Shown here: one piece after another, positions 14,717 through 35,653 of the stretch | Position numbering within the stretch: position 1 is the stretch's first letter | How the letters are laid out: the number at the start of each line of letters is the position of its first letter | Source of the DNA: Dehalococcoidia bacterium | GTDB lineage: Bacteria > Chloroflexota > Dehalococcoidia > SHYB01 | Reading direction: 5' to 3' | Assembly: GCA_965261455.1 (NCBI GenBank) | Contig: OZ253453.1 | Coordinates: forward strand, 3,511,372-3,575,371 | Length of the DNA: 64,000 bases | Translations under genes and position numbers: made by a program | Notes under the pieces: generated by a model | Told to the model about the DNA's origin: nothing | Databases searched by the model: none | The model's input: the letters and a program-made list of their open reading frames with translations, nothing else

Positions 14717-17700
14717 TCAGCGCCAGTCGTGGGCGGCTGGCATCGGGACCGTTGCATCGACGGTCTCGATGTCGGAGACGATGATGTCCGTCGTGCCGTC
14801 CCACCGGGAGACGACGCCCCCGGCCTGGATGACTTGGCTCCTGAGCTTCCCGCGGCAGCGGGCGAAGATCCGCGGCCAGAGGATGAGCTGCACGTCCCCG
14901 GTCTCGTCCTCGATGGTGACGAACACCGTGCCGTGCCTTCCCCGTGGGTGCTGCCGGGCGATGGGCCACCCCGCGACCAGCACCTCCTCGCCGTCGCCGC
15001 ATCCCTCCACGGCGTCGGCGGGCAGGACCCGGGGGTCCAGCACCGGCCGCACGAACTCCATGAGGTGGCCCCTAGGGTAGAGGCCCATGACCCGGTACTC
15101 GGTCGCCATCTTCTCGTATTCGGTGAAGTCGGCGAGTTCGGGGACGCCGCCCTGCGTCGATACGGGCAGGGCCCGCTGCCCCTTGCCGGAGGGACGGATG
15201 GCCAGGCCGGCGTCCCAGAGAGCCTCCCTGCGGTTGAGGGTCACGTCGTCGAAGGCCCCGGCCATGGCCAGCGACTCCACGGCCGCGGGCCGGAGGCCCG
15301 TCCGCCGCACCAGGTCCCCCGCACCGGAGTAGGGGCCGCCACGCTCCCGCTCCTCGACGATGGCCTCCGCCGACTCGGCTCCGACATCCTTTACGAGCTG
15401 AAGGCCCAGCAGCACCGAGCCCTCGTCGGGGATGCACCGGGCCCGGCTGCGGTTCACGCAGGGGTTTAGGAAGGGGACGCCGAAGCGCCGGGCGTCCTCC
15501 TTGAGGGTCTCGATGGGATAGAAGCCCATGGGCTGGTTGTTCATGAGCGCGGTGAAGAACTCCAGCGGGTGATGGCGCTTCAGCCAGGCGGCCTGGTAGG
15601 CGGTGACCGCGAAGGCGTGGGAGTGCGACTCGGGGAACATGTAGTGCCCGTTGATCTTGCCGAAGATCTTTGTGGCCATGTCCTCCGGGACCCCGTTTGC
15701 CCCGGCGCCCTCGAGGAACCGCCGCCGGTGCATGGCGATCAGGTGCTCGGCGTTGGGCTTGGCGAAGGCCCGCCTGATCTCATCGGCCTGAGCGGCGGTT
15801 AAGCCCGCGACGTCCATGATGAGTTGGACGACCTGCTCCTGCCAGACGATGATCCCGTAGCCCCGTTCGAGGGCGCGCTTTTCCAGCGGGTGGTCGTACT
15901 CCCACGCCGCCCCGTGCCGGTAACGTTCGACGAATTGGGAGACGGCGCTGCCCTGCACACCGACGCCGGGCCGGATGAGCGCGACTTGGTAGGCGAGGTC
16001 GAGGAGGTTGCGCGAGTTCAGCCGCTGCGCCAGCTTGAGCTGGGCGGGCGACTGCAGCAGGAAGACGCCCTTGGCCCCGCCGTCGTTGATCATGTCGTAG
16101 ACGGCGGGGTCCTCCGGGTCCACCTTGCCGAGGTCGAGCCTTTTCCCCTCGCGCCGTTCGACCAGATCGAGGGCCTCCTCCATCTGGTCCAGCACCGGCA
16201 GCGAGAGCAGGTCGATCTTGGCGAAGCCGGCGTCGGCGACGCTGTCCTTGTCCCAGTCCATGATGTAGCGCCCATCCATGGCCCCGGCCCGCATGGGGAC
16301 CATCTCCGGGATGGGGGAGCTGCTGAGGACCATGCCGCCGACATGCTGGCCCAGCGCCTTGGGCGCGCCGATCAGTTGCGGCGTGAGCGCCGCCAGGTCC
16401 CTCCAACCCGGTGCGTCCACCCGGTCCTTGAACGAGGGAAGCGCCAGCATCTCCTCCCGCAGGAGCCCTCCGCCGCCGTCCTCGACTTGCTTGGACAGCC
16501 TCCGCAGGTCCTCCTTCGGCAGGCCGAGGGCCTTCCCCAGGTCCTGAATAACGCCCTTGAGGGAGTAGGTGGCGACGGCCCCGGCGAGGACGGCAAACTC
16601 CGGCCCGAAGTGGCGGTGGACCCGCCGGATCAGCTCGTCGCGGAGCGCGCGGGGGAAGTCTAGGTCGATGTCGGGCAGCATGCTCATGTCCTCCGACATG
16701 AACCGCTCCAGGGTGAGGTCCCAGCGGAGGGGATTGACGTGGCTGATGCCGATTAGGTAGCCGGCGAGCAGCGCCACCGAGGAGCCCCTGCCCCTGCCAG
16801 GGGGCCGCTCCTCGAGGGGCGTCTCGGGGGAGGTCAGCCCCTTTTCCTCCATGATCCGCTGGGCGAGCAGGACGATCTCGCGGTAGAGGAGCAGAAAGCC
16901 AGCGAGGTTGTGTCTGCGTATCAGCCGCATCTCCTCGGCGAGGCGCCGCTCCACGCGCGGCGACACTGAGCCATAGCGGCGGACGGCGGCCTCGATGCAG
17001 AGCCGCTCCAGGTAGCTTTCGGCGGTGTACCCCTCCGGCGTCGCGGGGTCGGGGAGGGTGTAGCCCAAGTCGGTGGCGAGGTTGAAGGAGCACCGCTCCG
17101 CGATCCGCAGGGTGTTGGCGAGGGCGTCGGGGCGGTCCTGAAACAGGCGCGCCATCTGCATGGGAGACTTCAAGTACAGATGATGGTTCGGGCGGATGTA
17201 AGGGAGGGCCTGGTCGATGGTGGTGTTTCGCCTCGCCGCCGCCAACGCGTGTTGGAGGCGGTAGCGCTCGGGGGCGTGGTAGAGGACGTCGTTGGTGGCG
17301 GCCAGCGGAGCGCCCGCCTCGTCGGCCAAGGCCGCCAGCTCGCGGTTGCGGCGAGTGTCCCCGGAGAGGAAGTTGCGCTGCACTTCGACGAATACCGAGT
17401 CCGGGCCGAACCACTCCACGTACTGCCTGAGCAGGCCCGCGGCCTCCTCCCGGCGGCCGTCGAGCGCCAGGTTGGCGAGCCGTCCGTCGCGGCCGCCGGT
17501 GAGGAGGACCACGCCGCCGGCATGCTCGGACAGGTGGGTGGGGTCCAGCCTGGGCTGTCTCCGGTCGGTGGCGTTGGCTAGGGTGAACAGCCGGGAGATG
17601 TTGGCATAGCCCTGCCGCGTCTTGGCTAGGAGGACCAGACGGGAGCCGTCGCTGAGGGTCAACTCGCCCCCGGTGATGGGCTGGACGCCGAGGCTGTTAG

Positions 17701-17863
17701 CGAGGCGGGCGAACTCCAGCGCCCCGCAGAGGTTGGCGTCGGTGAGAGCCAGGGCGTCGTAGCCGTGCTCGCCCGCCTGGGCCAGCAGCTCGTGGGTGTG
17801 CGACGCGCCCAAGCCGAAGGAGTAGAAGCTCGCTGCATGCAACTCGACGTAGCCGGCGGTCAT
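14717..17863 (-). CDS. dnaE2: error-prone DNA polymerase III alpha subunit (DnaE2/ImuC)
   Basis: PHP-domain N-terminus MTAGYVELHAASFYSFGLGASHTHEL, ~1048 aa, directly downstream of an ImuB-like gene (16-nt gap). Confidence 0.85.
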   Translation of the reverse strand: MTAGYVELHAASFYSFGLGASHTHELLAQAGEHGYDALALTDANLCGALEFARLANSLGVQPITGGELTLSDGSRLVLLAKTRQGYANISRLFTLANATDRRQPRLDPTHLSEHAGGVVLLTGGRDGRLANLALDGRREEAAGLLRQYVEWFGPDSVFVEVQRNFLSGDTRRNRELAALADEAGAPLAATNDVLYHAPERYRLQHALAAARRNTTIDQALPYIRPNHHLYLKSPMQMARLFQDRPDALANTLRIAERCSFNLATDLGYTLPDPATPEGYTAESYLERLCIEAAVRRYGSVSPRVERRLAEEMRLIRRHNLAGFLLLYREIVLLAQRIMEEKGLTSPETPLEERPPGRGRGSSVALLAGYLIGISHVNPLRWDLTLERFMSEDMSMLPDIDLDFPRALRDELIRRVHRHFGPEFAVLAGAVATYSLKGVIQDLGKALGLPKEDLRRLSKQVEDGGGGLLREEMLALPSFKDRVDAPGWRDLAALTPQLIGAPKALGQHVGGMVLSSSPIPEMVPMRAGAMDGRYIMDWDKDSVADAGFAKIDLLSLPVLDQMEEALDLVERREGKRLDLGKVDPEDPAVYDMINDGGAKGVFLLQSPAQLKLAQRLNSRNLLDLAYQVALIRPGVGVQGSAVSQFVERYRHGAAWEYDHPLEKRALERGYGIIVWQEQVVQLIMDVAGLTAAQADEIRRAFAKPNAEHLIAMHRRRFLEGAGANGVPEDMATKIFGKINGHYMFPESHSHAFAVTAYQAAWLKRHHPLEFFTALMNNQPMGFYPIETLKEDARRFGVPFLNPCVNRSRARCIPDEGSVLLGLQLVKDVGAESAEAIVEERERGGPYSGAGDLVRRTGLRPAAVESLAMAGAFDDVTLNRREALWDAGLAIRPSGKGQRALPVSTQGGVPELADFTEYEKMATEYRVMGLYPRGHLMEFVRPVLDPRVLPADAVEGCGDGEEVLVAGWPIARQHPRGRHGTVFVTIEDETGDVQLILWPRIFARCRGKLRSQVIQAGGVVSRWDGTTDIIVSDIETVDATVPMPAAHDWR

Positions 17864-17879
17864 ACGCGGACGCCCGCTC

Positions 17880-19391
17880 CTAGGCGCTCTGCCGGTACCA
17901 GCGGGGCTCGTCGCGGTCACGGAAGAGCGTGAGCTGCGACCCGTCCTCGACACGGATCCGGTGGTAGGTGCGGGCGAGGGGCCTGGGCATCCACCAGAGG
18001 TCGAAGCTCCACGTGTCCTCGACGTCGTCCACCCGCCGCCAGTGCCCGCCCAGCCGGACCGCCGCGGGCCGGCGGTCCGGCCCCTCCCGGACCGCGACGG
18101 CGACGGGCGCGGAGAGCGAGCCGATGTCCTGCCGCCCTGAAGGATCGATGGGGACTCGCAGCGCGCGCATCTCCGGCGCCGGGTGCCAGGGAGCGACCTC
18201 GACTACCCGATAGAGGGCGTGGCCACCATCCATGTGGCCCCGCAGCCGCCGGTCGACCTCGACGAGCCGCTGCTCCCGGCTGTCCCGTATGTCCTCGGTC
18301 AACCCGAGCTGCAGGCCCGACTCGCCGGTGAGGTCGGAGAGGGCGAGGGTCACCTCCTCGACAGGCGCCCGCGGGTGGTCGGTCTCCAGCCGGCTCCTCA
18401 CGATGCGGGAGGCGCTCTGCCAATTCCCCGCCGCCTGCTTGAAGCGGAACGTTCGCTCCCAGGTCGCCTCCCGGTGGAGCAGGCACTCCACAGCGGCGCC
18501 GCCCGCGTACCTTCCCCGCATCTCGGGACGCGCGTACGCCTTCCTCAGCAGGGAGTCGACCGCGACGAAGAGGACTTCGATGGAGGCCGAGGTGAACGGG
18601 AGCGCGGCGTGCTCGGCCACGGCCTCCTCGTACTTCATGGGGACCAGGGGACTGTCGTCGACGCCGCGGGAAAGCCTCCATGCCCTCCGGCCCGCCGGTC
18701 CGAATTGGTCGACGATCGCTCCCTCCGGCATGGCGGCCACGTCGCCCATGGCGCGCTGGCCGAAGTGCTTGAGGCCGGTCTTGACCTCAGGGGTGATGGG
18801 CAGCAGGTCTATTGATTGGGGCGCGAGGAAGGCCCGGACGTCTGCGGGGGCTTGGCGGGCCCCGAGCGCCTCGGCGGTCCGCGCGGCGACAAGGGCTGGG
18901 AACTTGGCGTCCGCCACGCCGATACGCGGGGCGAAGTAGGTGGGGACGGCGTCCAGCAGGGCGCAGACGAGCCCGGCCTCCCCGCGGTACAGCCGTTCCA
19001 GACCGTCCATCCGCACGTAGGCCACCCCCAGCTCCGAGCGCTCGACGCGGTCGCCGACCGCCTGAAGGGAGGTGAGCATCCGGTGAAACGCCTTGCGGTA
19101 GGCGGGCTCGTCCGCCTCAATGACGGCGGCCTCGGCATGGCGCGACAAGGCCTGCTCCAACGTCATGCCCGCGGCCACCCCCACGGTGGCCGGGAGGAAG
19201 TCGACGACCACAGGCCTGCCGCCGGCGCGGTCGACGATGACGGCGGGCCTGCCGTCGAGATGCGGCTGCCGTCTCAGCTCGATCCTTGCCCGCAGGTGTG
19301 TGACGAGCACGCAGGCGACCCGCAAGGCGCCTCCTCGGTTACGAGAGTCCCCCGGAACGACCGGGGACGAAGGATGATAGAGAACGAACAT
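17880..19391 (-). CDS. imuB: ImuB-like Y-family polymerase paralog (mutasome accessory subunit)
   Basis: N-terminal Y-family palm-like region (VIVDRAGGRPVVVDF...AGMTLEQAL...VGDRVERSELGVAYVRMDGLERLY). Co-directional with and immediately upstream of dnaE2. The exact start is uncertain. Confidence 0.65.
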   Translation of the reverse strand: MFVLYHPSSPVVPGDSRNRGGALRVACVLVTHLRARIELRRQPHLDGRPAVIVDRAGGRPVVVDFLPATVGVAAGMTLEQALSRHAEAAVIEADEPAYRKAFHRMLTSLQAVGDRVERSELGVAYVRMDGLERLYRGEAGLVCALLDAVPTYFAPRIGVADAKFPALVAARTAEALGARQAPADVRAFLAPQSIDLLPITPEVKTGLKHFGQRAMGDVAAMPEGAIVDQFGPAGRRAWRLSRGVDDSPLVPMKYEEAVAEHAALPFTSASIEVLFVAVDSLLRKAYARPEMRGRYAGGAAVECLLHREATWERTFRFKQAAGNWQSASRIVRSRLETDHPRAPVEEVTLALSDLTGESGLQLGLTEDIRDSREQRLVEVDRRLRGHMDGGHALYRVVEVAPWHPAPEMRALRVPIDPSGRQDIGSLSAPVAVAVREGPDRRPAAVRLGGHWRRVDDVEDTWSFDLWWMPRPLARTYHRIRVEDGSQLTLFRDRDEPRWYRQSA

Positions 19392-19398
19392 TCTCTAT
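19377..19398. promoter_or_regulatory. perfect 22-bp palindrome ATAGAGAACGAACATTCTCTAT overlapping the annotated imuB ATG; candidate SOS-type operator
   Basis: 8-bp perfect inverted arms with a 6-nt centre. It contains GAAC-GAAC-ATTC, a one-mismatch Cheo-like GAAC-N4-GTTC. It lies in the 47-bp gap between the CoA-transferase stop and imuB. Confidence 0.35.
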
Positions 19399-19438
19399 GT
19401 CAAAGGGTCGATGACCCAGGGCCGAGGCGGCGAAGGGG

Positions 19439-20641
19439 CTAGATGATTCCGCGGTCGCGGAGCTCGACGATGCGCTCCCAGGAGAGGCCGAGGTCTTGGA
19501 GGACTTCCTCGGTGTGAGCGCCGAACTCTGGCGCCGTCGAGCGCGGCTTCCCCGGCGTCTCGCTGAGGCGGACGGGGAGGCCGACTTGCGTGATGGAGCC
19601 TGCCTCGGGGTGCTCCAGCTCGACGAGAAGCTCGTTGGCGATAACCTGGGGGTCGTTGGGGATGTCGTCGTATTTTTGGACGGGGCCGCAGAGGACGTCC
19701 TTGGCCCGCAGCAGGACGATCCACTCGTCGCGGGTCTTAGTGACGAAGGCGCGGTCCATGATCGGGATGAGCTCGCCGGCGTGTTGGCCGCGGGCGCGGA
19801 CCTCGGAGAAGCGCGGGTCATCGCGCAGCTCCTCAATGCCGAGGACCTCGCACAGCGCGGGCCAGTAGCGGTCGGGCTGGATGCCGCCGAGCGCGATCCA
19901 GCGATCGTCCTTGCAGCGGTAGATGTTGAATAAGGGGTTGTAGTTCGTCGCCCGGGGCCGGGGCAGCGGCATCTCGTCGTTCATCAGATAGCCGTTGAGG
20001 GCGAGCGCCTGGAGCGTCAGCTGCCCGCCGAGCTGAGAGACCTCGACGTGCTGGCCCTTGCCGGTGCGCTCGCGGTCGAAGAGGGCGAGCATGATCCCGT
20101 AGGCCATGGTGATGGCGCCGGTCTGGTCGGCGAGGCCGCCGCTGGAGCGGTAGGAGAGCTCGGGGTCGGCGATCGAGAGCAGTTCCATCAGGCCGCCGCG
20201 GGCCTGTCCGAGGATGTCGAATACGCCTTGTTTGGCTTCGGGGCCGCGCGAACCGAGGCCGGAGACGGAGGCGTAGACGATGCGGGGGTTGATCTTGCGG
20301 ACGGTCTCGTAATCGACCTTCAGTCGCTCGACGACGCCGACGCGGAAGTTCTGGGTGATCACGTCGCACCGCTTGGCGAGATCGTAGAAGATCTCGCGGC
20401 CGTCGTCGGACTTGAGGTTGAGCGTGATGCTCCGCTTGTTGCGGTTCATCGACTCGAAGTAGGTGGGGACGCGGCGTCCGGAGCGCCCCATGGGGGTGAG
20501 GGCGCGGCCGGGGTCGCCGTTGACGGGGTCTTCGACCTTGATCACCTCGGCGCCCATGTCCGAGAGCATCACGGTGCCCCAGGGGCCGTTCTGGTAGATG
20601 GTCAGGTCGAGGATGGTGATGCCGTCGAGTGGGCCTTGCAT
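19439..20641 (-). CDS. CoA-transferase family III (CaiB/BaiF-like)
   Basis: N-terminal GPLDGITILDLT...GPWGTVMLSDMGAEVIKVEDP signature of family III CoA transferases. Confidence 0.8.
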   Translation of the reverse strand: MQGPLDGITILDLTIYQNGPWGTVMLSDMGAEVIKVEDPVNGDPGRALTPMGRSGRRVPTYFESMNRNKRSITLNLKSDDGREIFYDLAKRCDVITQNFRVGVVERLKVDYETVRKINPRIVYASVSGLGSRGPEAKQGVFDILGQARGGLMELLSIADPELSYRSSGGLADQTGAITMAYGIMLALFDRERTGKGQHVEVSQLGGQLTLQALALNGYLMNDEMPLPRPRATNYNPLFNIYRCKDDRWIALGGIQPDRYWPALCEVLGIEELRDDPRFSEVRARGQHAGELIPIMDRAFVTKTRDEWIVLLRAKDVLCGPVQKYDDIPNDPQVIANELLVELEHPEAGSITQVGLPVRLSETPGKPRSTAPEFGAHTEEVLQDLGLSWERIVELRDRGII

Positions 20642-20663: not shown

Positions 20664-21872
20664 CTAGATCACGCCGCGGTCCCGAAAGCCTTCGAGGTCT
20701 TCCCAGGAGTAGCCGGCGGCGAGCAGTACGTCTTCGGTGTGAGCGCCGAACTCGGGGGCCGTCGAGCGGGGCTTCGCCGGCGTCTCGCTGAACCGGATGG
20801 GGCAGCCCGCCTGAATCAGCGTCCCCTCCGACGGATGCTCAAGTTCGACGACGTAGTCGTTGGCGCGCACCTGGGGGTCGTGGATTACATCTTCGTAGTC
20901 CTGCACCGGCGCGGCGAGCACGTCGGCGTCGTTGAACGCCTTCACCCACTCGTCGCGGTCCTTGGCAGCGAAGGCGTGGTCCATGATCTCCATGAGCTCA
21001 ATGGCGTTGTCGTTGCGCGGGCCGTTGCCGTTGAACTTGGAGTCGTGCTCCAGGTCCTGGATGCCGAGGATGCGGCAGATGTCGGGCCAGTAGCGGTCGC
21101 CCTGGACGCAGCCCAGAGCGAGCCACTTGCCGTCGCGGGCGGGGTAGATGTGGAAGAGGGGGCTGTTGCCGGCTTTGCCGCGCTGCTTACCCTGGGGCTT
21201 ATCGCCGGCGATGGTGTAGCGCCCGATGCTGAGTCCCTGGAGGAGCATCTGGCCGCCAAGCTGGGAGGTCTGGACGTGCTGGCCCTTGCCGGTGCGCTCG
21301 CGGGCCATGAGGCCGGCGAGGACGGCGTAGGCGAGGGTGATCGCCCCCACCTGATCGGCGATGCCCGCGCCCGCGCCGCGGTAGGTGGGGGCGTCCTCGC
21401 CGGCGGAGAGCATGTTCATCAGCCCCCCGCGCGACAGGCCCAGGATGTCGTAGACGCCCTGCTTTGAGTCGGGGCCGAGCGGCCCCCAGCCGGAGACGCT
21501 GCCGTAGACGATGCGGGGATTGATCGCGCGGACGGTCTCGTAGTCCACCTTCAGGCGCTCGACGACACCGAGACGGAAGTTCTGGGTGATGGCGTCGACG
21601 TCCTTGGCGATCCGGTAGAAGATCTCACGGCCCTCGTCGGACTGCAGGTTGAGCGTCATGCTCTTCTTGTTGCGGTTCAGGACCTGAAAGTAGGAGAACG
21701 AGGCGCGGGTCGAGCCGCCGGCGGGGAGAAGGCCGCGGCCGGGGTCGCCGGTCACCGGGTGCTCGACCTTGATCACGTCGGCGCCCAAGTCGGAGAGCAT
21801 CACCGTCGCCCACGGCCCGTTCTGCCAGATGGTCAGATCGAGGATGGTGATGCCGTCCAGGGGGCCGGGCAT
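20664..21872 (-). CDS. CoA-transferase family III (CaiB/BaiF-like), paralog of the preceding gene
   Basis: MPGPLDGITILDLTIWQNGPWATVMLSDLGADVIKVEHP. Internal ATG at 21872 with GGAGG RBS. The listed 631-aa ORF is a Pro-rich read-through extension. Confidence 0.8.
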   Translation of the reverse strand: MPGPLDGITILDLTIWQNGPWATVMLSDLGADVIKVEHPVTGDPGRGLLPAGGSTRASFSYFQVLNRNKKSMTLNLQSDEGREIFYRIAKDVDAITQNFRLGVVERLKVDYETVRAINPRIVYGSVSGWGPLGPDSKQGVYDILGLSRGGLMNMLSAGEDAPTYRGAGAGIADQVGAITLAYAVLAGLMARERTGKGQHVQTSQLGGQMLLQGLSIGRYTIAGDKPQGKQRGKAGNSPLFHIYPARDGKWLALGCVQGDRYWPDICRILGIQDLEHDSKFNGNGPRNDNAIELMEIMDHAFAAKDRDEWVKAFNDADVLAAPVQDYEDVIHDPQVRANDYVVELEHPSEGTLIQAGCPIRFSETPAKPRSTAPEFGAHTEDVLLAAGYSWEDLEGFRDRGVI

Positions 21873-22011
21873 AGGGAGAGACCTCCGGGGCGTCCTGAGT
21901 CGCGCTTTCACCGGAAACGGCGCGGAATTTCGAGGCGTCATCACGGTAGGACGCGGCCCCGCGAATGTCAACGAAAGGGCTTGCGCAGCCACGGCGCCCA
22001 CAGGGGGCCCC

Positions 22012-22674
22012 CTACGGGAGGGCTGTGGCGAAGGCGATGAGGGCCTCGGCGGCTTCGGCCCAGATGTCTTCGCGGGTGTGGCCGTCGGCCTTGCGGGCGG
22101 CGAAGCTGTGGTCGGCGCCTTGGAGGACGTGGACGCGGGCGTTGGGGGCCTTGGCGGCGGAGGCGGCGAGCTCGGCGGGCGTGGCGAAGGTGTCGCGGGT
22201 CCCCGAGCAGAAGAGCACCGGCATATCGAGAGCAGGAAAGTGCGCGTCGCGGAGGCGCTCCGGCTTCCCCGGCTGGTGCAGGGGGTAGGCGAAGAGGGCG
22301 AGACCGTCGACGGCGGCGCCGTTCGCGGCGGCCATCGAGGCGATACGGCCGCCCATCGAGCGCCCGCCGAGCAGCAGGACGCGCGCCGAGGGCCGCGCCG
22401 CGGTGATCGCGGCACGCCAGGTTGCCTCCAGCACCGGCGGACGGTCGGGCGCGCGCCGCCCCGCTTCCATGTAGGGGAACTGGAAGCGCAGGACACCCAG
22501 GCCCTCGGAGGGCAGGCGTTCCGCCAGGTAGGCCCCGAAGAGGTCGTCCAGGTTGGCACCCGCGCCGGGGACGTAGACGTAAAGCCGTCCGCCTCCGGTC
22601 TGGAGTGCGTCCGCCCGGATTGCGCTTACCGCGCCCTTACCGGGGACTTCTATCGAGAACCGCTCGCCGCTCAA
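22012..22674 (-). CDS. alpha/beta-fold hydrolase (dienelactone-hydrolase-like)
   Basis: GRSMGG nucleophile elbow, ~220 aa, Asp/His-containing C-terminal region. Confidence 0.55.
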   Translation of the reverse strand: MSGERFSIEVPGKGAVSAIRADALQTGGGRLYVYVPGAGANLDDLFGAYLAERLPSEGLGVLRFQFPYMEAGRRAPDRPPVLEATWRAAITAARPSARVLLLGGRSMGGRIASMAAANGAAVDGLALFAYPLHQPGKPERLRDAHFPALDMPVLFCSGTRDTFATPAELAASAAKAPNARVHVLQGADHSFAARKADGHTREDIWAEAAEALIAFATALP

Positions 22675-23205: not shown

Positions 23206-26200
23206 ATGTTGCCTTTTGACGCTGAGCGCGGGAGTGGGGTTGAAGGTCGCATCATGGCGTCGATGGCGTGCTCACAGGCGATTCCAGTAGAATCGCTTCT
23301 AGCAGAGGTGTACACCGACTTGACAACGCTTCCTCACCCGTCCGCCGCCGACTTCGCCGCCAAGTGGCGGGACAACCCCCGCCGGGAGCGCGCTTCGTCG
23401 CAGGAGCACTTCATCGACCTCTGCCGCCTGCTCGGTATGCCTACGCCCAACGAGGCCGACCCGACCGGCGACCGATACACGTTCGAGGCCGGGGCCGAGC
23501 GGACCAGCACGGGCAAGCGGGGCTGGGCCGACGTCTGGAAACGCGGCCATTTCGGCTGGGAGTACAAGGGCGCCCATGCCGACCTCGCCGCCGCCTACCG
23601 ACAGTTGCTTGACTATCGCGAGGCGCTGGAGAACCCGCCGCTGCTCGTCGTCAGCGACATGGAGCGAGTCGAGGTCCACACCAACTTCACCAATACCCGG
23701 ACTGCCGTCCATATTGTGACGCTCGCCGACCTTTCGGCGGGCGGCGAGCGGACCGCCGAGGCGTTGCGCATCCTGCGGGCGGTGATGAGCGAGCCCGAGG
23801 CGTTGCGGCCCAGGCAGACGCCCGAAGAGGTTACGAAGGAGGCCGCGTCCCGCTTCGCGGAACTCGCCCGTTCGATGCAGGAGCGCGGGCACGAACCGGA
23901 GGCGGTCGCCCACTTCCTCAACCGTGTGCTCTTCTGCCTCTTCGCCGAGGATGTCGCGTTGCTCCCCAAGCGGCTCATGAGCGACCTGATATCGTCGCGC
24001 GCCGACGAGCCGGAGGAGTTCACGGAGGGCCTCGCCGAGCTGTTCCGCCTGATGGCGGACCGGAAGGCAAGCCGCTTCTTCGGGACACAGCGGGTTGAGT
24101 GGTTCAACGGGGGCCTGTTCGACGATGACGCGACGCTCGCCTTCACCCGCGAGGAGCTTCGTATTGTCGGCGTCGCCTCCTCGCTCGATTGGTCACAGGT
24201 CGAGCCGGCGATTCTTGGCACGCTGTTCGAGCGGGGACTCGATCCCGCCAAGCGCGGCCAGTTGGGCGCCCACTACACCGACCACGAGAAGATCATGATG
24301 GTCGTTGAGCCGGTGGTGATGGCGCCCCTGCGCCGCGAGTTCGACGCCATGCGCGAGCAGGTCGACGAGCTGATGAGCGGCCGCGATCCGAGTCCACTTA
24401 CCCGCGACGGAGAGCGCCGGGCACGGCTGCCCGCATGGGAGCACAAGGCTGAGGCAGGGTGGCGCGCCTTTCTGGAACGGCTGCGCGCGGTGCGCGTGCT
24501 CGACCCGGCCTGCGGCTCGGGGAATTTCCTCTACGTCACGCTGCGGTTGCTCAAGGACCTGGAGCACGAGGCCATCCGCTGGGGTGCGGAGCGGCTGCGC
24601 ATCACCGGGGAGTTCCCGCAAGTCGGCCCGCACAATGTTTTGGGGATCGAGACTAACGCCTACGCGAAGGAGCTGGCGGGCGTCGCGATCTGGATCGGAC
24701 ACATTCAGTGGATGCTGGACCACGGCTACGGCTTCCCCCATGACCCCGTGCTCCAGCCGCTGGACAACATCGAGCGGCGAGATGCGATTCTCGCTTACGC
24801 CGATAAGGACGATAAGAAAGTTCCCATTCCGGCGACTTGGCCGGAGGCGGAGTTCATTGTCGGCAACCCGCCGTTCTTGGGCACGAAGCTGATGCGTCAA
24901 TCGTTGGGCGATGCCTACGTCGACGATGTGTTCCTTGCCTGGAAGGGTCAAGTCGCCCGCGAATCGGACTTGGCATGCTACTGGCACGAAGATGCGCGCC
25001 GCCAGATTGTCGCGGGCCACACGAGCCGTGCCGGTCTGCTGGCAACCAACTCGATCCGGGGCGGCGCGAACCGCTTAGTGCTTAACGGAATCAAGAAGAG
25101 CGGCGATATCTTCCTGGCCTGGTCGGACGAACCTTGGGTCGTTGAGGGCGCCGCCGTCCGCATCTCGATCGTGGGCCAGGACGACGGATCTGAGGAACAG
25201 CGCGAGTTGGACGGCAAGTCCGTCGAGGCGATCAACAGCGACCTGACAGCGGGCCTCGACCTGACACAGGCCCGTATCCTCCCCGAGAATCAGGGCGTCT
25301 CGTTCATGGGCGACACGAAGGGCGGCGCGTTCGACATCCGGGGCGAAGTTGCTCGAGGGATGCTCTCGCTGCCGGCGAACGTCAATGGCCGCACCAATGC
25401 CGATGTGGTCGTGCCCTGGGTGAACGGCATGGACATCACGCGCCGACCGCGTGGCATGTTCATCATCGACTTCGGCGCGGACATGTCCGAGTCGGACGCC
25501 GCCGCGTACGAGGCGCCATTCGAGTACGCGCGCGAGCATGTGCACCCGGTACGCGCAACAAACAAGCGCGAGTCCTATAGGGACCCTTGGTGGGTGCATC
25601 TCAGGCCCCGCCCGGCGATGCGGACGGCGCTGGCTCAACGGTCGCGGTTCATTGTCACGTCGACGGTCGCGAAGCATCGCCTGTTCACCTGGGTGTCGGC
25701 GCCGACGCTTCCCGACCACCAACTCATCGCGATCGCGCGCGACGACGACTACGCCTTCGGCGTCTTGCACGCACGCGCGCACGAACTGTGGTCGCTGCGG
25801 GTGGGCACAAGCCTTGAAGACCGCCCGCGTTACACGCCGACGACGACATTCGAGACGTTCCCCTTTCCGTGGCCGCTCAATACGCCGGACACGGCGCTGA
25901 CCTCTGAGCAGCGAGGCCACCGCGACGCCATCGGGGAGGCGGCGCGGGCGCTGGACGAGGCGCGCCGGCGCTGGCTCAACCCGTCGGAGTGGGTGCGCGA
26001 GGAGCCCGACGTCCTGCCCTCGCTTCCAGCGCGCCTGCTGCCGGTTGACGAAGATGCGGCCAAGCAACTGCGCAAGCGCACGCTTACCAACCTCTACAAC
26101 GCCCGCCCCACGTGGCTCGCCAACCTGCACGCGAATCTCGACGCCGCCGTGTTCGCCGCCTATGGCTGGCCGGAGAGACTTGACGATGGTGCATTGTTGG

Positions 26201-26262
26201 AGCGGCTGCTCGACCTCAACTTCGCGAGGGACCGAGCAAGCGGCCGCAGCGACACCAAATAA
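23206..26262 (+). CDS. MmeI-family type IIL restriction-modification enzyme (fused N-terminal PD-(D/E)xK-like nuclease domain, gamma-class N6-adenine methyltransferase and TRD)
   Basis: N-terminal GWADVWKRGHFGWEYKG ... AYRQLLDY ... PLLVVSDMERVEV parallels the MmeI D-x9-E-x-K nuclease block; MTase motif I LDPACGSGNFLY and motif IV NPPFLG; 1018 aa; lower-GC upstream region (23000-23200). Confidence 0.75.
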   Translation: MLPFDAERGSGVEGRIMASMACSQAIPVESLLAEVYTDLTTLPHPSAADFAAKWRDNPRRERASSQEHFIDLCRLLGMPTPNEADPTGDRYTFEAGAERTSTGKRGWADVWKRGHFGWEYKGAHADLAAAYRQLLDYREALENPPLLVVSDMERVEVHTNFTNTRTAVHIVTLADLSAGGERTAEALRILRAVMSEPEALRPRQTPEEVTKEAASRFAELARSMQERGHEPEAVAHFLNRVLFCLFAEDVALLPKRLMSDLISSRADEPEEFTEGLAELFRLMADRKASRFFGTQRVEWFNGGLFDDDATLAFTREELRIVGVASSLDWSQVEPAILGTLFERGLDPAKRGQLGAHYTDHEKIMMVVEPVVMAPLRREFDAMREQVDELMSGRDPSPLTRDGERRARLPAWEHKAEAGWRAFLERLRAVRVLDPACGSGNFLYVTLRLLKDLEHEAIRWGAERLRITGEFPQVGPHNVLGIETNAYAKELAGVAIWIGHIQWMLDHGYGFPHDPVLQPLDNIERRDAILAYADKDDKKVPIPATWPEAEFIVGNPPFLGTKLMRQSLGDAYVDDVFLAWKGQVARESDLACYWHEDARRQIVAGHTSRAGLLATNSIRGGANRLVLNGIKKSGDIFLAWSDEPWVVEGAAVRISIVGQDDGSEEQRELDGKSVEAINSDLTAGLDLTQARILPENQGVSFMGDTKGGAFDIRGEVARGMLSLPANVNGRTNADVVVPWVNGMDITRRPRGMFIIDFGADMSESDAAAYEAPFEYAREHVHPVRATNKRESYRDPWWVHLRPRPAMRTALAQRSRFIVTSTVAKHRLFTWVSAPTLPDHQLIAIARDDDYAFGVLHARAHELWSLRVGTSLEDRPRYTPTTTFETFPFPWPLNTPDTALTSEQRGHRDAIGEAARALDEARRRWLNPSEWVREEPDVLPSLPARLLPVDEDAAKQLRKRTLTNLYNARPTWLANLHANLDAAVFAAYGWPERLDDGALLERLLDLNFARDRASGRSDTK

Positions 26263-26269
26263 CAGCGGC

Positions 26270-26745
26270 ACTTGGCGGCGCGGCCCCCGTCGCGGCACGT
26301 TTTGGGCGCACCGCGCCCTTTGTAGGCGTGCGTCGACCCGCGCCCAGGAGGGGGCGGGTCGACGCGGTCGCACACTCCCCTTGCGGAGAGGCGCGCGCCG
26401 GCACACGCTCAGTCGGGTGGTCCGGCGCAGGTGCACGCTCCCCTCGCGGGGAGGCGCGGCGCCGGGGACGCCACGGGGGCGAGTCGGCGCGGGTTGCACG
26501 CTCCCTTACGGGAGGCGCGGCGCCGGTTGGAGGCCCGGAGGCCCTTGGCCGGCGCAGGTGCACGCTCCCTTACGGGAGGCGCGGCGCCGGTTGGAGGCCG
26601 GGAGGCCCTTGGCCGGCGGAGGTGCACGCTCCCTTGCGGGAGGCGCAGAACACAGCTTCTCCCGCCGCTGCGCGGGGTAGCACTAATGTTCTAGGCTAAC
26701 GATAAACCCCCTTGACAAGCCTTGTCAAGTATCATCGGCGGGCAA
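26270..26745 (-). repeat. structured repeat element, copy B. It is the inverted copy of 4116-4620, with five GNRA-hairpin units (~26365-26648) and the perfect palindrome CTTGACAAGCCTTGTCAAG (26711-26729).
   Basis: The reverse complement aligns with 4116-4600, including the boundary motif CAGCCAATTTTGCCCGCCGATGATACTTGACAAGGCTTGTCAAGGGGGTTTATCGTTA. The Cheo box is degenerate here (GCACTAATGTTC). Confidence 0.6.
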
Positions 26746-27172
26746 AATTGGCTGTGGGGCCAAGGTGGAGCGGCGCCGGCCTCCCCCCGCCCCTCCGACG
26801 CGCCCTTGGGGCGCGTGCCCTCTTTCAGTTTCCCCCAGAGGGGGAAAGGCCGGAGGGGAGGGCGCCCACGAGGGGCGCCCCTACGAGATGGGAGGCGCGG
26901 CGGGTTTTGCAAGGGCCTCCAGAGGGGGAAAGGGGGATGAGCGGCCTGCTCCGCCCGTTCGAGCCGGACGCGGAATTGGCTGTGGGGCCAAGGTGGAGCG
27001 GCGCCCTCCCCACCCCGCCCCTCCGACGCGCCCTTTGGGCGCGTGCCCTCTTTCAGTTTCCCCCAGAGGGGGAAAGGCCGGAGGGGAGGGCGCCCACGAG
27101 GGGCGCCCCTACGAGATGGGAGGCGCGGCGCGGCGGGTTTTGCAAGGGCCTCCAGAGGGGGAGCGTAGGGAG
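26746..27172. repeat. 2 x ~228-bp tandem repeat built from REP-like hairpins (GCGCCCTTGGGGCGC, TTTCCCCCAGAGGGGGAAA, GGGCGCCCACGAGGGGCGCCC, GGGTTTTGCAAGGGCCTCCAGAGGGGGA)
   Basis: Unit 1 starts at 26746 and unit 2 at 26974, both beginning AATTGGCTGTGGGGCCAAGGTGGAGCGGCGCC. Near-identical units. Confidence 0.55.
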
Positions 27173-27173: not shown

Positions 27174-28190
27174 CTATTCGAGGGCTGGGGCGATTTCTTT
27201 CATGAAGAGGCGGGCGCCTTCGAGGTAGGCTTCGATGGTGGTGGGCATGAAGTTGGTGACGAAGGATGTCGAGCCGGCTTCTTTGAAGGCGAGGAATTCG
27301 TCGCGCAACTCGTCTACCGTCCCCTTGCAGGTAAAGAAGTCGATTTCGGAGATGGGGCGGCGGCGGTCCCGCGTGGACTTGGGCAGGAAGTTCAGGGGCG
27401 GGGCACTGCTCATCACGTACTCCAGCGGCGGCTTGCCCGTCTTCTCTCGCTCCGCGTCGGCCCACTCCTTGAGCTCGACGAGGCGGCTGGTGGAGACGCT
27501 CGACGACTGCGCGCCGCTCGGTCCGCCCTCGGTCTTGCCCGACGGATTCTGCACCGGCGGATAAGCGAAGCAGGTGGGCGTCCAGCCCTCCCCCACGCGG
27601 ATGGCTCGCGCCAGGCTCGCCTTGCTGCTGCCGCCGACCCACACCTCGGGCCTGGGCTGCTGCACCGGACGGACCACCAGGCTCACGTCCTCGAAGCTAT
27701 AGAACTCGCCGGAGAAGCTGGCGCGCTCGTTGGCCCAGAGGCGGTAGATGATTTCGATGTATTCGTCGGTCATCTTGCCCCGCTTGTTTCGAGGGAGCCG
27801 CATCACCTCGAACTCCGTGAGGTCGGAGCCGACGCCGGGGCAGAAGAGGAGACGGCCCCCCGACAGGGAGTCGATCGTGGCGAGGCCATGGGCCACGCCG
27901 AAGGGCTGGCGGTAGGGGAGCACGAGGACGCGGGGCATGATCTTGACGCGCTCGGTGATCGAGGCCAGGTAGCCGAGCATGGCCTGGGGGTCGGCGTAGC
28001 GCCATCCGGGATTATCGTTGACGGTGTGGCCGGTCAGTGACTGTCCGGGGTGGAAGATGTGGTCGGGCATGGAGATGCCCCAGAAGCCAAGTTCCTCGAT
28101 CTCGCGGACCACCTTCTCGATGCCCGATTTCTCGCCACGGCGGGCGTCGTTGAGGAACAACGCGATGGGGATGCCCGTCACCAGTTTCAT
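27174..28190 (-). CDS. LLM-class F420/flavin-dependent oxidoreductase
   Basis: 338-aa luciferase-like TIM-barrel sequence. Confidence 0.75.
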   Translation of the reverse strand: MKLVTGIPIALFLNDARRGEKSGIEKVVREIEELGFWGISMPDHIFHPGQSLTGHTVNDNPGWRYADPQAMLGYLASITERVKIMPRVLVLPYRQPFGVAHGLATIDSLSGGRLLFCPGVGSDLTEFEVMRLPRNKRGKMTDEYIEIIYRLWANERASFSGEFYSFEDVSLVVRPVQQPRPEVWVGGSSKASLARAIRVGEGWTPTCFAYPPVQNPSGKTEGGPSGAQSSSVSTSRLVELKEWADAEREKTGKPPLEYVMSSAPPLNFLPKSTRDRRRPISEIDFFTCKGTVDELRDEFLAFKEAGSTSFVTNFMPTTIEAYLEGARLFMKEIAPALE

Positions 28191-32289: not shown

Positions 32290-32530
32290 CCCGGCCTCGC
32301 TCCCTCTGGAGCCCTTTGCGTAACTTGGCGGGCGGGGAGGGAGCAGCGCCCTTCGGGCGCTCGCGCGCCTAGTGGCGCGCGCCCTCTCTCAGTCTCCCCC
32401 AGAGGGGGAGAGGCTTAAGCCAGCCCCACTCCGCTCCCCTCCGCCAAGACTCCGGTGGGTTTTGCAAAGATCTCCTCTGGCGGAGACTAAGAGGGGGCGC
32501 GCCGACAGGTGCGCCGACGCCCAAAGGGTG
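32290..32530. repeat. cluster of REP-like palindromes (core CCCTCTCTCAGTCTCCCCCAGAGGGGGAGAGG)
   Basis: Same hairpin family as 6396-6450 and 26746-27172; also shares the GGGTTTTGCAA motif. Confidence 0.4.
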
Positions 32531-33799: not shown

Positions 33800-35653
33800 A
33801 TGAAGGAACGCAGCTTCCCGGCTTTTACGCTGTTGCGTAGCAAGTCGGCGATGCTCGCCACGCTCTTGGCCGCCGTCGCGCTGGTGGTCGCTGCCTGTGG
33901 CGGCGGCGAGGACCCAACGGCCGCGCCGACAGACGCCATGATGCCCAAGGAAGACCTCGGCAGCCTCTCCGGCGACGTGGACATCGACGGTTCGAGCACG
34001 GTCTTCCCCATCTCCGAGGCGGTCGCCGAGGAGTTCCGCTCGGTGGCGCCGAAGGTCCGCGTGCAGGTGGGCGTCTCCGGCACCGGCGGCGGCTTCAAGC
34101 GGTTCTGCGCCGGCGAGACCGACATCTCCGACGCCTCGCGCCTCATCAAGGGCTCCGAGCGTGAGATCTGCGCCGCCAACGGCATTGAGTTCGTCGAGAT
34201 GCTGGTGGGCTGGGACGGCCTCTCCGTCGTGGTCAACCCGGACAACGACTTTGTCGGCGAGCTCAGCATTGAAGAGCTGAAGAAGATCTACGAGCCGGGC
34301 TCGACGGTCAACAACTGGAACCAGGTCCGCGCCTCCTTCCCCGACGAAGAGCTGACCATCTTCGCTCCTGACGTGGACTCGGGCACGTTCGACTTCTTCA
34401 CCGACGAAGTGGTCGGCGAGGAGGGCGCCTCCCGCTCGGACTACACCGCCTCCTCGGACGACAACGTCCTTGTCCAGGGCATCGCCGGCGAGCGCGGCGC
34501 GAAGGGCTACTTCGGGTATGCCTACTACGCGGAGAACCAGGACAAGCTGAAGGTCCTCGGCGTGGACGGCGTCGTTCCCAACGAAGAGACGATCCTCTCC
34601 GGCGAGTACCCGCTCACCAGGCCGCTCTTCATCTACGTGAAGACCTCGTCGCTGAGCGAGAAGGCCCACGTGGCCGAGTTCGTGAAGTTCTACATCGCGA
34701 ACTCGCCGGAGCTCGTGGCCGACGTGGACTACGTGCCGGTGAGCACGGAGCAGTACGACACCGCCCGCGGCGCCATCGCCCGCATCCTGGGCCTGGCCGA
34801 CATCGAAACGGGCCTCTCCGGCGACGTGGACATCGACGGTTCGAGCACGGTCTTCCCCATCTCCGAGGCGGTGGCCGAGGAGTTCCGCTCCGTGGCGCCG
34901 AAGGTCCGCGTGCAGGTCGGCGTCTCCGGCACGGGCGGCGGCTTCAAGCGTTTCTGCGCCGGCGAGACGGACATCTCCGACGCCTCGCGCCTCATCAAGG
35001 GCTCCGAGCGTGAGATCTGCGCCGCCAACGGCATCGAGTTCGTCGAGATGCTGGTGGGCTGGGACGGGCTCTCCGTCGTGGTCAACCCGGACAACGACTT
35101 TGTTGACGAGCTCAGCATCGAAGAGCTGAAGAAGATCTACGAGCCGGGCTCGACGGTCAACAACTGGAACCAGGTCCGCGCCTCCTTCCCGGACGAAGAG
35201 CTGACCATCTTCGCCCCTGACGTGGACTCGGGCACGTTCGACTTCTTCACCGACGAAGTAGTCGGCGAGGAGGGCGCCTCCCGCTCGGACTACACTGCCT
35301 CCTCGGATGACAACGTGCTCGTCCAGGGCATCGCCGGCGAGCGCGGCGCGAAGGGCTACTTCGGGTACGCCTACTACGCGGAGAACCAGGACAAGCTGAA
35401 GGTCCTCGGCGTGGACGGCGTCGTTCCCAACGAAGAGACGATCCTCTCCGGCGAGTACCCGCTCACTAGGCCGCTCTTCATCTACGTGAGGGTGGACTCG
35501 CTGGTGGACAAGCCGCAGGTCCGCGAGTTCGTCCGCTTCTACATCGAGAACTCGCCGGAGCTCGTGGCCGACGTCGACTACGTGCCGGTAAGTGCCGAGC
35601 AGTACGACGACGCCCGCGGGGCCATCGCCCGCCTGACCGAGATCGGCCTCTAA
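33800..35653 (+). CDS. pstS: phosphate ABC transporter substrate-binding protein PstS, fused tandem duplication (two complete PBP domains)
   Basis: N-terminal signal/lipobox-like [14 protein letters not shown]. The [19 protein letters not shown]...[13 protein letters not shown] block occurs twice. The two halves (about 33960-34650 versus 34810-35500) are ~98% identical at the nucleotide level. Confidence 0.8.

Follow-up and report, generated by a model that had tools for sequence, protein, structure and literature searches.

The window, by which we mean the whole stretch of 64,000 nucleotides (64 kb) that was analyzed, contains two copies of one element in opposite orientation, copy A at 4109-4633 on the (+) strand and copy B at 26290-26772 on the (−) strand, approximately 22.6 kb apart. 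They share 84% identity and consist of the same parts in the same order: a promoter of the sigma70 type whose −35 box is covered by a 9-1-9 palindrome, a hairpin at the 5' end, five modules of two hairpins each, and a conserved tail. When 4080-4640(+) and 26240-26800(−) are aligned with gaps, 84% of the columns are likewise identical (A1), and three inverted-repeat pairs (I1, 105 nt, 91%; I2, 82 nt, 83%; I4, 79 nt, 76%) join 4103-4510 to 26363-26772. The sequence-only reading had equated the reverse complement of 26270-26745 with 4116-4600; the alignment is real, but the copies extend further, to about 4109-4590 and 26772-26290. Its account of the parts stands. The boundary motif CAGCCAATTTT..GATGATACTTGACA.G.CTTGTCAAGGGGGTTTATCGTTA is present in A and B with 4 differences, each copy carries five hairpins of the form GCGCCUCCC-GNRA-GGGAGYGUGC, the fourth spacer is similar in both, and the first and second spacers are near-duplicates within each copy and different between the copies (D11/D15). 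The genes between the copies are also confirmed: fabF, pepN (Peptidase_M1), dnaE2, an imuB-like gene and the gene of a type IIG MmeI-like enzyme.

Copy A is adjoined on its left edge by a displaced 3' fragment of fabF (fabF', 3792-4108, − strand), a direct repeat of 5119-5351 and 5555-5657 (D5, 86%; D10, 92%) which appears as a Ketoacyl-synt_C fragment call in the strain contigs. Both fabF' and copy A are absent from the corresponding site of locus L014. The A/T-rich, UP-like upstream boundary CAGCCAATTTTCCGCGCCAATGATAC (4121-4146, +) marks the start of family homology, and upstream of CCAATTT similarity is lost in all family members. The promoter (4146-4176, +) has a −35 box TTGACA at 4147-4152 and a −10 box TATCGT at 4171-4176, and the palindrome CTTGACAGG-C-CTTGTCAAG (4146-4164, +), which overlaps the −35 box, has the one mismatch reported before. 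A perfect GAAC-N4-GTTC box of the LexA/Cheo type, GAACATGTGTTC, follows at 4186-4197(+), about +3 to +14; this box had been overlooked, as had its degenerate counterpart in copy B. One half of it pairs with GGAAUGCAUGUUC in the 5' hairpin P0 (4184-4227, +) in the MFE as well as the centroid structure. The five modules of the array (4229-4543, +) start at 4229, 4290, 4350, 4416 and 4479. A conserved 3' tail (4544-4633, +; ..CAAAGGNNGANNUGCGCCCAAARCG..) leads to a hairpin at 4600-4618 directly before the Shine-Dalgarno sequence AAAGGUGAG. Directly downstream lies a further feature that had been missed, the reading frame 4634-5062(+) of 142 amino acids (ORF142), an orphan that resembles small terminases (TerS) by a profile match to phrog_4044.

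Copy B has the upstream boundary CAGCCAATTTTGCCCGCCGATGATAC (26729-26754, −), a promoter at 26699-26729(−) with the −35 box at 26728-26723 and the −10 box at 26704-26699, and a palindrome that is perfect, as noted previously (CTTGACAAG-G-CTTGTCAAG on the element strand, 26729-26711, −). Its LexA-type box GAACATTAGTGC (26691-26680, −) is degenerate by one mismatch (GTTC to GTGC) and is identical in the ortholog of copy B in MAG CBDCOW01. The modules of its array (26330-26646, −) start at 26646, 26582, 26518, 26457 and 26394, modules 1 and 2 being near-identical. The conserved tail occupies 26290-26329(−), and family homology stops about 28 nt short of the stop codon of the MmeI-like gene (26260-26262). 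Beyond the tail we found neither an ORF on the same strand nor a terminator-like site, which agrees with the earlier description of a gene-less copy pointing antisense toward the restriction-modification gene; the copy runs into the MmeI-like stop at 26262. The element edges showed no terminal inverted repeats and no target-site duplications, and no transposase was found there. Outside the element, beside copy B, lies a 228-bp tandem duplication (26746-27130) carrying GTAG-headed REP hairpins (D6, 97%; D12, I21, I22), and the same GTAG REP occurs at 3761-3788, outside copy A.

The inverted arrangement had led to the proposal that recombination between the copies would invert the 22-kb block. 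According to this proposal the copies of about 500 bp serve as substrates of homologous or site-specific recombination, which flips 22 kb and swaps the genes behind the promoters. As in known inverted-repeat-bounded invertible segments, two inverted homologous sequences, here 84% identical, surround a gene block. Identical stretches, the longest of them 31 bp, could allow rare RecA events, and the convergent A/B pair is kept in MAG CBDCOW01. All genomes compared show one orientation, however. Glyoxalase, fabF', element, ORF142, fabF and pepN follow in this order in 10 out of 10 strain contigs with ORF142, the window and MAG CBDCOW01 are collinear at either side (L017, L037), and in the two more distant relatives L013 and L014 the relative orientation of bioB (outside the bracket) and fabF-pepN-luciferase (inside) is unchanged. 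The search for both orientations in related strains thus returned a single arrangement, and no second one in 12+ genomes. The sign of the GC skew flips near 14.7 kb and at neither of the copies (4.1 and 26.7 kb). A and B are identical in patches, and the longest exact run (31 bp) lies inside the repeated unit, which favors gain or loss of units within the array. Unlike invertible segments the locus has no recognized recombinase in or beside the interval. Pfam revealed no recombinase domain in ORF142, FabF, the MmeI-like protein, two CoA-transferases, ORF 10061-12277, ORF 13118-14692 and the imuB-like protein. For pepN and the luciferase-like gene next to it the coverage consists of precomputed Pfam marks on strain contigs. 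PADLOC (ORF142, two unknown ORFs, MmeI) and NCBIfam (ORF142, two unknown ORFs, dnaE2, imuB) gave no recombinase either; the two unknown interval ORFs had no match whatever in the domain scans. Since the repeats belong to a dispersed family and the element stands as single copies at at least seven other loci, we regard an invertible segment as very unlikely; that A and B lie inverted to each other would be incidental.

Neither the MmeI-like nor the luciferase-like protein is on record by exact-protein look-up, so that the context of copy B in other genomes comes from MAG CBDCOW01 alone. We also considered 9.1-27.2 kb of the window as an 18-kb island ending at copy B, as L013 and L014 might suggest, and rejected it, as the luciferase-like gene that follows pepN there matches 9044-10054. 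The latter is a paralogue of 27174-28190.

The exact promoter pattern yielded 22 genomic loci, of which 21 belong to Dehalococcoidia/Chloroflexota MAGs; MAG CBDCOW01 alone accounts for 11. Arrays of 4-11 modules follow seven of these 11 promoter copies and are spread over three contigs with unrelated surroundings. Mapping of the element genome-wide, as had been suggested, hence shows it dispersed in this MAG, where the promoter stands 11 times and arrays number 7 or more, that is at several loci and not at dozens. Most of what had been named as refuting an invertible block is thus observed. Across the family an array holds 3-11 modules, and the strains carry 4 or 5. Arrays stand upstream of ORF142 homologues (48-100% identity) at L011, L013, L014, L016, L017 and L041, and alone between convergent genes at L021, L029, L038 and at copy B with its ortholog L037. 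L011 is a 10-module copy with a second paralogue beside GmrSD, and L001 is a one-module remnant. Rfam searches at gathering and permissive thresholds with copies A and B, with 16 related loci and with 5 low-GC ones gave no match for the element, the best score being 27.6 bits for naRNA4 against a gathering score of 59.5. Elsewhere Rfam reported a tRNA, an SRP RNA and a sub-threshold T-box only. Scanning IMG/VR viral contigs with the promoter pattern and with the first hairpin of the module (H1) gave 0 matches, and blastn and tblastn against GenBank phages gave none to the element, so it does not derive from a known phage. As judged from its sequence, the element is an uncatalogued multi-copy family of high-GC soil Dehalococcoidia (Chloroflexota), tied to phage-derived DNA-packaging genes.

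The promoter-like pattern TTGACA-18-TATCGT occurs once per copy, at 4147-4176(+) and 26728-26699(−), with a chance expectation of 0.0-0.1, and it is conserved at 30+ loci. The box of copy A is the only exact GAAC-N4-GTTC match in the 64 kb; as about one such match per window is expected by chance alone, the argument rests on its position and on family-wide conservation, the same motif being found at about +3 to +14 in most family members. Copy A thereby has GAAC-N4-GTTC over its start site, as LexA (SOS) operators overlap the promoter or start site, and LexA control is predicted for it. A one-mismatch LexA-type box is located at 19382-19393 between the −35 and −10 boxes of the imuB(-dnaE2) promoter. 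The boxes are degenerate in most arrays, namely in all gene-less ones and in three preceding terS-like genes (L011, L013, L014), and for these co-induction may not hold. Promoter, LexA control and transcript are all to be read as predictions.

A module is 60-66 nt long, keeps no reading frame, and comprises H1, with its GCGCCUCCC-GNRA-GGGAGYGUGC stem, a bulged Y and a conserved G.U pair, and a variable hairpin H2. The exact H1 core occurs 6 times in the window, only at copies A and B (0.00 expected), and the five H1 loops are GCAA, GUAA, GUAA, GCGA and GCAA in identical order in A and B. P0, internal modules, two conserved terminal modules (modules 4 and 5 in copy A) and tail have a fixed order and orientation behind the promoter in every copy. 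Folding of the leader is strongly biased toward the sense strand, with z = −8.75 (A) and −5.30 (B) compared to −2.81 and −2.94 on the opposite strand. For a single module we obtained −40.0 kcal/mol (z = −6.3) in sense and −24.6 (z = −0.3) in antisense direction. The G.U pair of the lower H1 stem is kept in 92 out of 92 instances. The P0 arms co-vary among family members (GAACAUGUG/GCAUGUUC, GAACAUA/UAUGUUC, GAACGUAUG/CAUACGUUC), and so do the upper H1 stems between array types, with 100 out of 112 cells paired compared to 82.5 ± 2.4 after shuffling, where 91 was the highest value in 2000 trials. In the H2 of the last module 92% of the cells pair compared to 81% in shuffles (0 out of 500 reached it), both sides having changed in 7 out of 14 pairs, and slid controls yield at most 50%. 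RNAalifold picked an alternative nested pairing between neighboring H1 copies in the terminal modules; for this reason the count was restricted to the last H2 helix, which is unambiguous. The outer H2 stem shows no covariation beyond shuffles, which is uninformative because its sequence is conserved.

The strand-asymmetric folding, the conserved G.U, the GNRA loops and the compensatory changes point to a structured RNA on the sense strand. One must keep in mind that the main-type H1 loops are all GYRA, and that variants differing by transitions alone could reflect shallow divergence instead of selection. DNA can also maintain variable palindromes, and conservation of hairpins by itself is compatible with a role at the DNA level. 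A CRISPR array was rejected, as its “spacers” would be conserved hairpins common within and between arrays and no cas domains occur among the proteins scanned near and between A and B. TIGR-like guide arrays, integron attC sites, a retron and a type I toxin were set aside for lack of associated genes, for the same conserved hairpins in place of spacers and for lack of a conserved reading frame.

REP/BIME sequences are GTAG-headed imperfect palindromes which are intergenic, dispersed and mobilized by RAYT. Together with naRNA4/REP325 they resemble the element in being dispersed, intergenic, GC-rich tandem hairpins of strain-variable number. The arrays could accordingly be pictured as a neutral or selfish, BIME-like expandable cluster of palindromes hitch-hiking on a duplicated promoter fragment, with gene-less copies as decaying, functionless remnants. 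Such a view would account for the variable copy number, the concerted evolution within arrays and the degenerate one-module remnant in L001; genuine REPs lie close by, as may a Y1 transposase, and the sub-threshold naRNA4 score is a weak resemblance to a REP-derived RNA. It does not explain why every copy has its own promoter and operator, a single orientation behind that promoter and conserved terminal modules and tail, nor why copy B and its ortholog L037 (94.6%) are conserved as much as their flanking genes. H1 and H2 lack the GTAG head, the GTAG-REPs being a separate, adjoining repeat class, and pairing is retained across array types whose accompanying proteins are just 48% identical. We consider a neutral repeat quite improbable as an explanation of the family. 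The arrays with degenerate LexA-type boxes could be decaying relics, as in L001.

ORF142 has a basic, arginine-rich N-terminus, an HTH and a long helix. It matches phrog_4044 with E=7e-13; for its homologue P0011 the value is E=4e-20. P0011 (L012) precedes TerL, portal, major head protein and adaptor. The AF2 model of ORF142 reaches a pLDDT of about 90 for residues 16-80, and its top fold matches in the PDB are all small terminases, albeit weak ones (E about 0.2, probability up to 0.94). Across 14 homologues 19 columns are invariant. Searches of ORF142 against Pfam, NCBIfam and PDB sequences, including a protein profile against the PDB, gave nothing significant, and PADLOC had no match. We call ORF142 TerS-like, an assignment based on one profile match and context. 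It is not directly upstream of terL, as the convergent fabF comes next, whereas the TerS copies in L012 (P0011), L023 and L035 do precede TerL. The element-type promoter is found ahead of TerS-TerL-portal-major head protein-adaptor (L012), portal (L020, L036) and TerS-TerL (L023, L035), and at the true TerS-TerL loci (L012, L023, L035) the array is absent. L012 also bears a faint Y1_Tnp mark, possibly of a Y1 transposase.

The link between arrays and TerS paralogues raises the question whether the repeats act as DNA. A pac-like site would have H1 repeats approximately 61-64 bp apart, about six helical turns, wrapping a TerS ring, and the gene-less arrays would be extra starts of unidirectional, GTA-like packaging. 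The promoter common to the multi-locus TerS-TerL and portal loci is in agreement with this. [quoted passage not shown] Here, too, a terS-type gene from a packaging module of phage origin has a repeat array between its promoter and its 5' end, or over them. The present arrays differ from it by their 3-11 two-hairpin modules of 60-66 nt, the sense-only structure, G.U pairs and compensatory changes, and by gene-less copies at scattered chromosomal sites. Folding that differs so strongly between the strands, like the conserved G.U pairs, would be meaningless in duplex DNA, the upper stems and loops of H1 vary freely between array types with pairing retained, and no such array is present where these genomes have full TerS-TerL loci. 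A pac-like site is thus unlikely in our view.

Promoter, tandem RNA repeats and protein gene also make up type III toxin-antitoxin loci, and one might assume that the repeats neutralize the downstream protein in the ToxI-ToxN fashion, orphan arrays being spare antitoxin. GmrSD, the type IIG restriction-modification enzyme and an LRR plus GmrSD_C pair are neighbors, which resembles the defense-island setting of ToxI/ToxN loci, where repeat arrays can lack the protein as well. ORF142, however, is TerS-like and not an endoribonuclease of the ToxN/AbiQ type, and it has no PADLOC match. The modules are in tandem behind one promoter, yet they are not identical units: they are unequal in length, keep a fixed 5'-to-3' order and end in distinct terminal modules. 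No terminator separates array and gene, and an SOS-type box is present. A type III-like or other defense module therefore seems hardly credible to us.

In the leaders of lambdoid phages the nut boxB hairpin is bound by the arginine-rich N peptide, and HK022 has the put RNA. A possible resemblance is that of GNRA-type hairpins in a phage-derived leader next to a protein with an arginine-rich N-terminus. The lambdoid hairpin is present in one copy compared to 3-11 here, we identified nothing like N, Nus or boxA, and the protein encoded downstream resembles TerS.

Taken together, it appears probable that A and B are paralogous members of a lineage-specific RNA unit of promoter plus hairpin array, with copy A as the leader of ORF142 and copy B gene-less, and that the RNA is damage-induced, multivalent and regulatory or protein-binding. 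A strong sigma70-type promoter, with the −35 box within the 19-bp palindrome and the start site under the LexA-type box, would drive a modular non-coding RNA that folds on the sense strand only. The RNA of copy A would form a leader of about 450 nt of the orphan small-terminase paralogue; a transcript of copy B, if made, would run antisense into the MmeI-like gene. As the same promoter stands at the TerS-TerL and portal-capsid loci, these and the RNA are probably de-repressed jointly after DNA damage. As the most likely mechanism, the repeated H1 hairpins would represent a multivalent platform for one RNA-binding protein. The most obvious candidate, as a guess, is ORF142 with its arginine-rich N-terminus; TerS proteins are known as binders of DNA and not of RNA. 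In cis the platform would determine how stable the terS-like mRNA is or how well it is translated, whereas copies without a gene would work in trans.

A further hint comes from unrelated low-GC bacteria, where an identical 23-nt H1 hairpin is part of a small promoter-hairpin-U-tract unit upstream of NYN-domain genes. Because of this H1 could be an ancient protein-recognition motif. Array RNA and orphan TerS paralogue could form an undescribed RNA-protein module accessory to GTA-like particles that Dehalococcoidia would make from several loci upon SOS induction. In it the multivalent H1 hairpins would bind a TerS-like or other packaging factor and titrate or assemble it, thereby controlling the timing or the content of packaging, gene-less arrays acting in trans. 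We regard this extension as rather unlikely.

The modest message is that a striking pair of long inverted repeats represents two copies of a dispersed element and not an inversion switch. If the RNA reading is true, the family would be a new class of large modular bacterial RNA of 0.4-0.8 kb with 3-11 modules, for which the LexA-type box would provide a regulatory handle and the small-terminase paralogues a genetic partner. The host lineage is uncultured and lives in soil, and its phage-like gene-transfer machinery is unexplored. The element would then give an entry to the retention of orphan small-terminase paralogues and to the ligand of a hairpin common to distant phyla, as well as to the coupling of DNA damage, phage-derived particles and RNA in Chloroflexota.

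The two copies, A (4109-4633, plus strand) and B (26290-26772, minus strand), consist of the same parts in identical order: a boundary motif (CAGCCAATTTT..GATGATAC), a predicted promoter (TTGACA-18-TATCGT), a 5' hairpin of ~45 nt, five modules with a period of 60-66 nt, and a conserved tail at the 3' end. Aligning 4080-4640 with the reverse complement of 26240-26800 gives 84% column identity, and a repeat finder returned many inverted pairs joining both regions, the longest of 105 nt at 91%. The promoter site occurs once in each 1.6-kb region (0.0-0.1 expected), and its -35 hexamer is covered by a 19-bp palindrome that is perfect in copy B and has one mismatch in copy A. Each module combines a conserved hairpin, H1 (GCGCCUCCC-GNRA-GGGAG-Y-GUGC), with a variable hairpin, H2. 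Six occurrences of the H1 core were counted over the 64 kb, all of them within the two copies, with 0.00 expected. The GNRA loops, the common fourth spacer and the independent duplication of spacers 1 and 2 in each copy, all described in the sequence-only reading, were recovered, as were the position of copy B at the stop codon of the MmeI-like gene and the genes between the copies (fabF, pepN, dnaE2, an imuB-like gene and a type IIG enzyme).

The same reading had interpreted the copies as a switch whose recombination would invert the 22-kb block between them. Two inverted copies do exist, but an inversion system as originally described does not hold, as one arrangement only was observed. In ten out of ten strain contigs the order is glyoxalase, fabF' (a displaced fabF 3' fragment), element, ORF142 (the gene downstream of copy A), fabF, pepN. 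The window and the reference MAG CBDCOW01 are collinear on either flank of each copy, and the A/B pair of the MAG is likewise convergent, ~23.5 kb apart. At two related loci, L013 and L014, whose ORF142 homologues show 64-70% identity, bioB, which lies outside the bracket, keeps its orientation relative to fabF-pepN-luciferase, which lies inside it. A and B share no exact run longer than 31 bp, and that run falls within the repeated module; the variation observed among strains is gain or loss of modules (4 versus 5). GC skew flips at ~14.7 kb and not at either copy, and none of the interval proteins scanned was recognisable as a recombinase. Because of the conserved gene order, the short identity, the GC skew and the lack of a recognisable recombinase we regard the inverted arrangement as incidental, judging from sequence comparison; rare recombination between A and B may occur.

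The skew changes from ~-0.07 to ~+0.06 at about 14000-15000, between an ORF at 13118-14692 (+) and dnaE2 (14717-17953, -), with mostly minus-strand genes on both sides. It could represent a replication landmark or a junction of DNA with different histories. That ORF (524 aa) and another in the bracketed block, 10061-12277 (-, 738 aa), had no match in Pfam, NCBIfam or PADLOC. Tandem CoA-transferase family III paralogues (19439-20641 and 20664-22559) share 71-82% DNA identity; two further tandem duplications lie at 33963-35111 and 47279-48604 (D1 97%, D2/D9 80-83%).

The exact pattern TTGAC-N4-5-TTGTCAAGGGGGTTTA was scanned in one genome per species. It yielded 22 loci, 21 of them in Dehalococcoidia/Chloroflexota MAGs (11 in MAG CBDCOW01 alone) and one a chance match in Streptomyces. 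Three downstream classes were found. In the first an array is followed by a terS-like gene (window copy A, L011 with 10 modules, L013 with 5, L014 with 3, L016 with about 10 short modules, L017 and L041). In the second the array has no same-strand gene and typically faces a convergent gene (window copy B and its ortholog L037, L021 with 8 modules, L025 with 10, L029 with 11 and L038 with 5); L028, with at least 4 modules, is placed here although the locus stops within the array and its downstream side is outside view. The third has no array but a short hairpin and a terminator-like hairpin, either 5' of portal (L020, L036), 5' of TerS-TerL (L023, L035), or standing alone. All arrays have the 5' hairpin, two terminal modules and the tail in common, and only the internal modules, homogenised within each array, differ in number. 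The family therefore represents dispersed copies of one homologous unit, 0.45-0.8 kb long and with its parts in a fixed order. A rival explanation of the array is neutral, BIME-like expansion.

Several results favour an RNA that folds on the strand the promoter would transcribe. For leader A, z is -8.75 in sense versus -2.81 in antisense, and for leader B -5.30 versus -2.94; a single module reaches -40.0 kcal/mol (z = -6.3), its complement -24.6 (z = -0.3). The asymmetry is due to G.U pairs, one of which is present in the H1 lower stem in 92 of 92 instances. Main-type loops are GCAA, GUAA, GCGA or GUGA without exception, although these variants differ by transitions only. In the array type of L016 and L031 the flanks GCGCCU...AGYGUGC are constant, while the H1 upper stem and loop are altered with pairing preserved. 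For the H1 upper stem, 100 of 112 cells are paired, whereas shuffling gave 82.5 +/- 2.4 and at most 91. In the H2 of the last module, 92% of cells are paired versus 81% shuffled (0/500), with both sides changed in 7 of 14 pairs and slid pairing at <=50%. The arms of the 5' hairpin also co-vary among arrays; the outer H2 stem is sequence-conserved and thus uninformative for covariation. One must keep in mind that palindromes may persist in DNA for reasons other than RNA folding. A pac-like site acting at the DNA level is a rival reading, with the SPP1 pac region as the closest positional analogue (PMC4737164).

The earlier reading had overlooked a LexA-type box. Copy A carries GAACATGTGTTC at 4186-4197 (~+3 to +14), and no other exact GAAC-N4-GTTC occurs in the window; copy B carries GAACATTAGTGC in the equivalent position. 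The promoter of imuB-dnaE2, a classical SOS operon, at 19370-19410 (-) reads TTGACA-17-TATCAT with the box GAATGTTCGTTC (one mismatch) between the hexamers. The LexA of Dehalococcoides uses the Gram-positive-type box GAAC-N4-GTTC. As the listed imuB ATG falls within GAATGTTCGTTC, imuB translation probably begins at a later codon.

ORF142 (4634-5062, plus strand, 142 aa), likewise overlooked in that reading, starts 40 nt past the end of copy A and has a good Shine-Dalgarno sequence. Profile searches relate it to small terminases (phrog_4044, E = 7e-13). In its AF2 model the N-terminal domain is helical and predicted with confidence, and the best PDB matches of the model are small terminases throughout, but weak. 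An identical ORF142 is present on 14 long-read metagenome contigs. A type III toxin-antitoxin-like module is a further rival reading.

The cassette of array and terS-like gene is dynamic. Copy A and ORF142 lie between fabF' (3792-4108) and intact fabF, whose 3' end (5119-5657) repeats fabF' at 86-92%, a partial direct duplication bracketing the cassette that resembles what integration or recombination at the 3' end of fabF would leave behind. A diverged fabF fragment is also seen 5' of the cassette in L013. In L014 fragment and cassette are both missing at the fabF site, a cassette being present 2.5 kb leftward; in L011 both positions are occupied, the left cassette adjoining a GmrSD gene, and L001-type strains keep GmrSD but, of the cassette, only a one-module remnant with a damaged promoter. 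Defence genes are frequent neighbours (GmrSD, MmeI-like, an LRR + GmrSD_C pair). In MAG CBDCOW01 the MmeI-like gene has an in-frame internal deletion of 2547 bp (L037 3670/3671 versus window 23290-25836), and the copy B ortholog is intact despite it. GTAG-headed REP hairpins (GTAGGGGCGCCCCTCGTGGGCGCCC) occur in composite repeats at 3761-3788, 26746-27130 and 32368-32414; the one immediately outside copy B is a 228-bp tandem duplication, and in other genomes many members of the family have composites of similar type on their 5' side.

No Rfam family matched the element, and nothing resembling it was found in IMG/VR or GenBank phages. In JGI metagenomes the H1 pattern gave one more array with a terS-like gene (L041) and one chance coding match on three contigs. 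We class the element, whose taxonomic range is narrow, as akin to two known kinds, structured repeat RNAs and the leaders of packaging genes derived from phages. An exact match to the 23-nt H1 hairpin (GCGCCUCCCG-A/U-AAGGGAGUGUGC) was also seen in unrelated low-GC JGI contigs of 34-45% GC (L039, L042, L043, L044, L045, L047, L049), in a conserved mini-unit of a predicted strong promoter, H1 as stem and a U-tract, which had no Rfam match. It lies 31-38 nt 5' of NYN-domain genes in four contigs, and its lower stem has a compensatory change in L045. This could be a shared protein-recognition hairpin or convergence.

We consider the anatomy, dispersal and strand-specific structure of the element, and its tie to TerS paralogues and a shared promoter, established. 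Mechanistically, LexA would repress the promoter and DNA damage would induce it. The resulting transcript of ~450 nt would, from copy A, be the leader of ORF142 and, from copy B, a free RNA. Its repeated H1 hairpins could form a multivalent platform for one protein, the obvious candidate being ORF142, whose N-terminus is rich in arginine. Acting in cis, the platform might control how stable the terS-like message is or how it is translated; for action in trans, the gene-less copies might supply it.

In L012 (5104-12703) the same LexA-box promoter precedes TerS-TerL-portal-major head protein-adaptor (head-tail), with a divergent 4-oxalocrotonate tautomerase gene alongside; the TerS gene of this series, immediately 5' of TerL, encodes an ORF142 homologue (50% identical). 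Between promoter and full-length TerS gene lie three ~200-bp tandem repeats with REP-like hairpins (5230-5800), a class distinct from the hairpin array in an equivalent position. In several genomes the promoter adjoins the divergent tautomerase gene and precedes head genes; in others (L020, L036; L023, L035, L032) it precedes portal at the tautomerase locus, and a second locus has TerS-TerL behind this promoter as well. Read from a few loci, this suggests that Dehalococcoidia keep, by vertical descent, a phage-derived (GTA-like) gene set that is spread over several loci and controlled by one SOS-type promoter.
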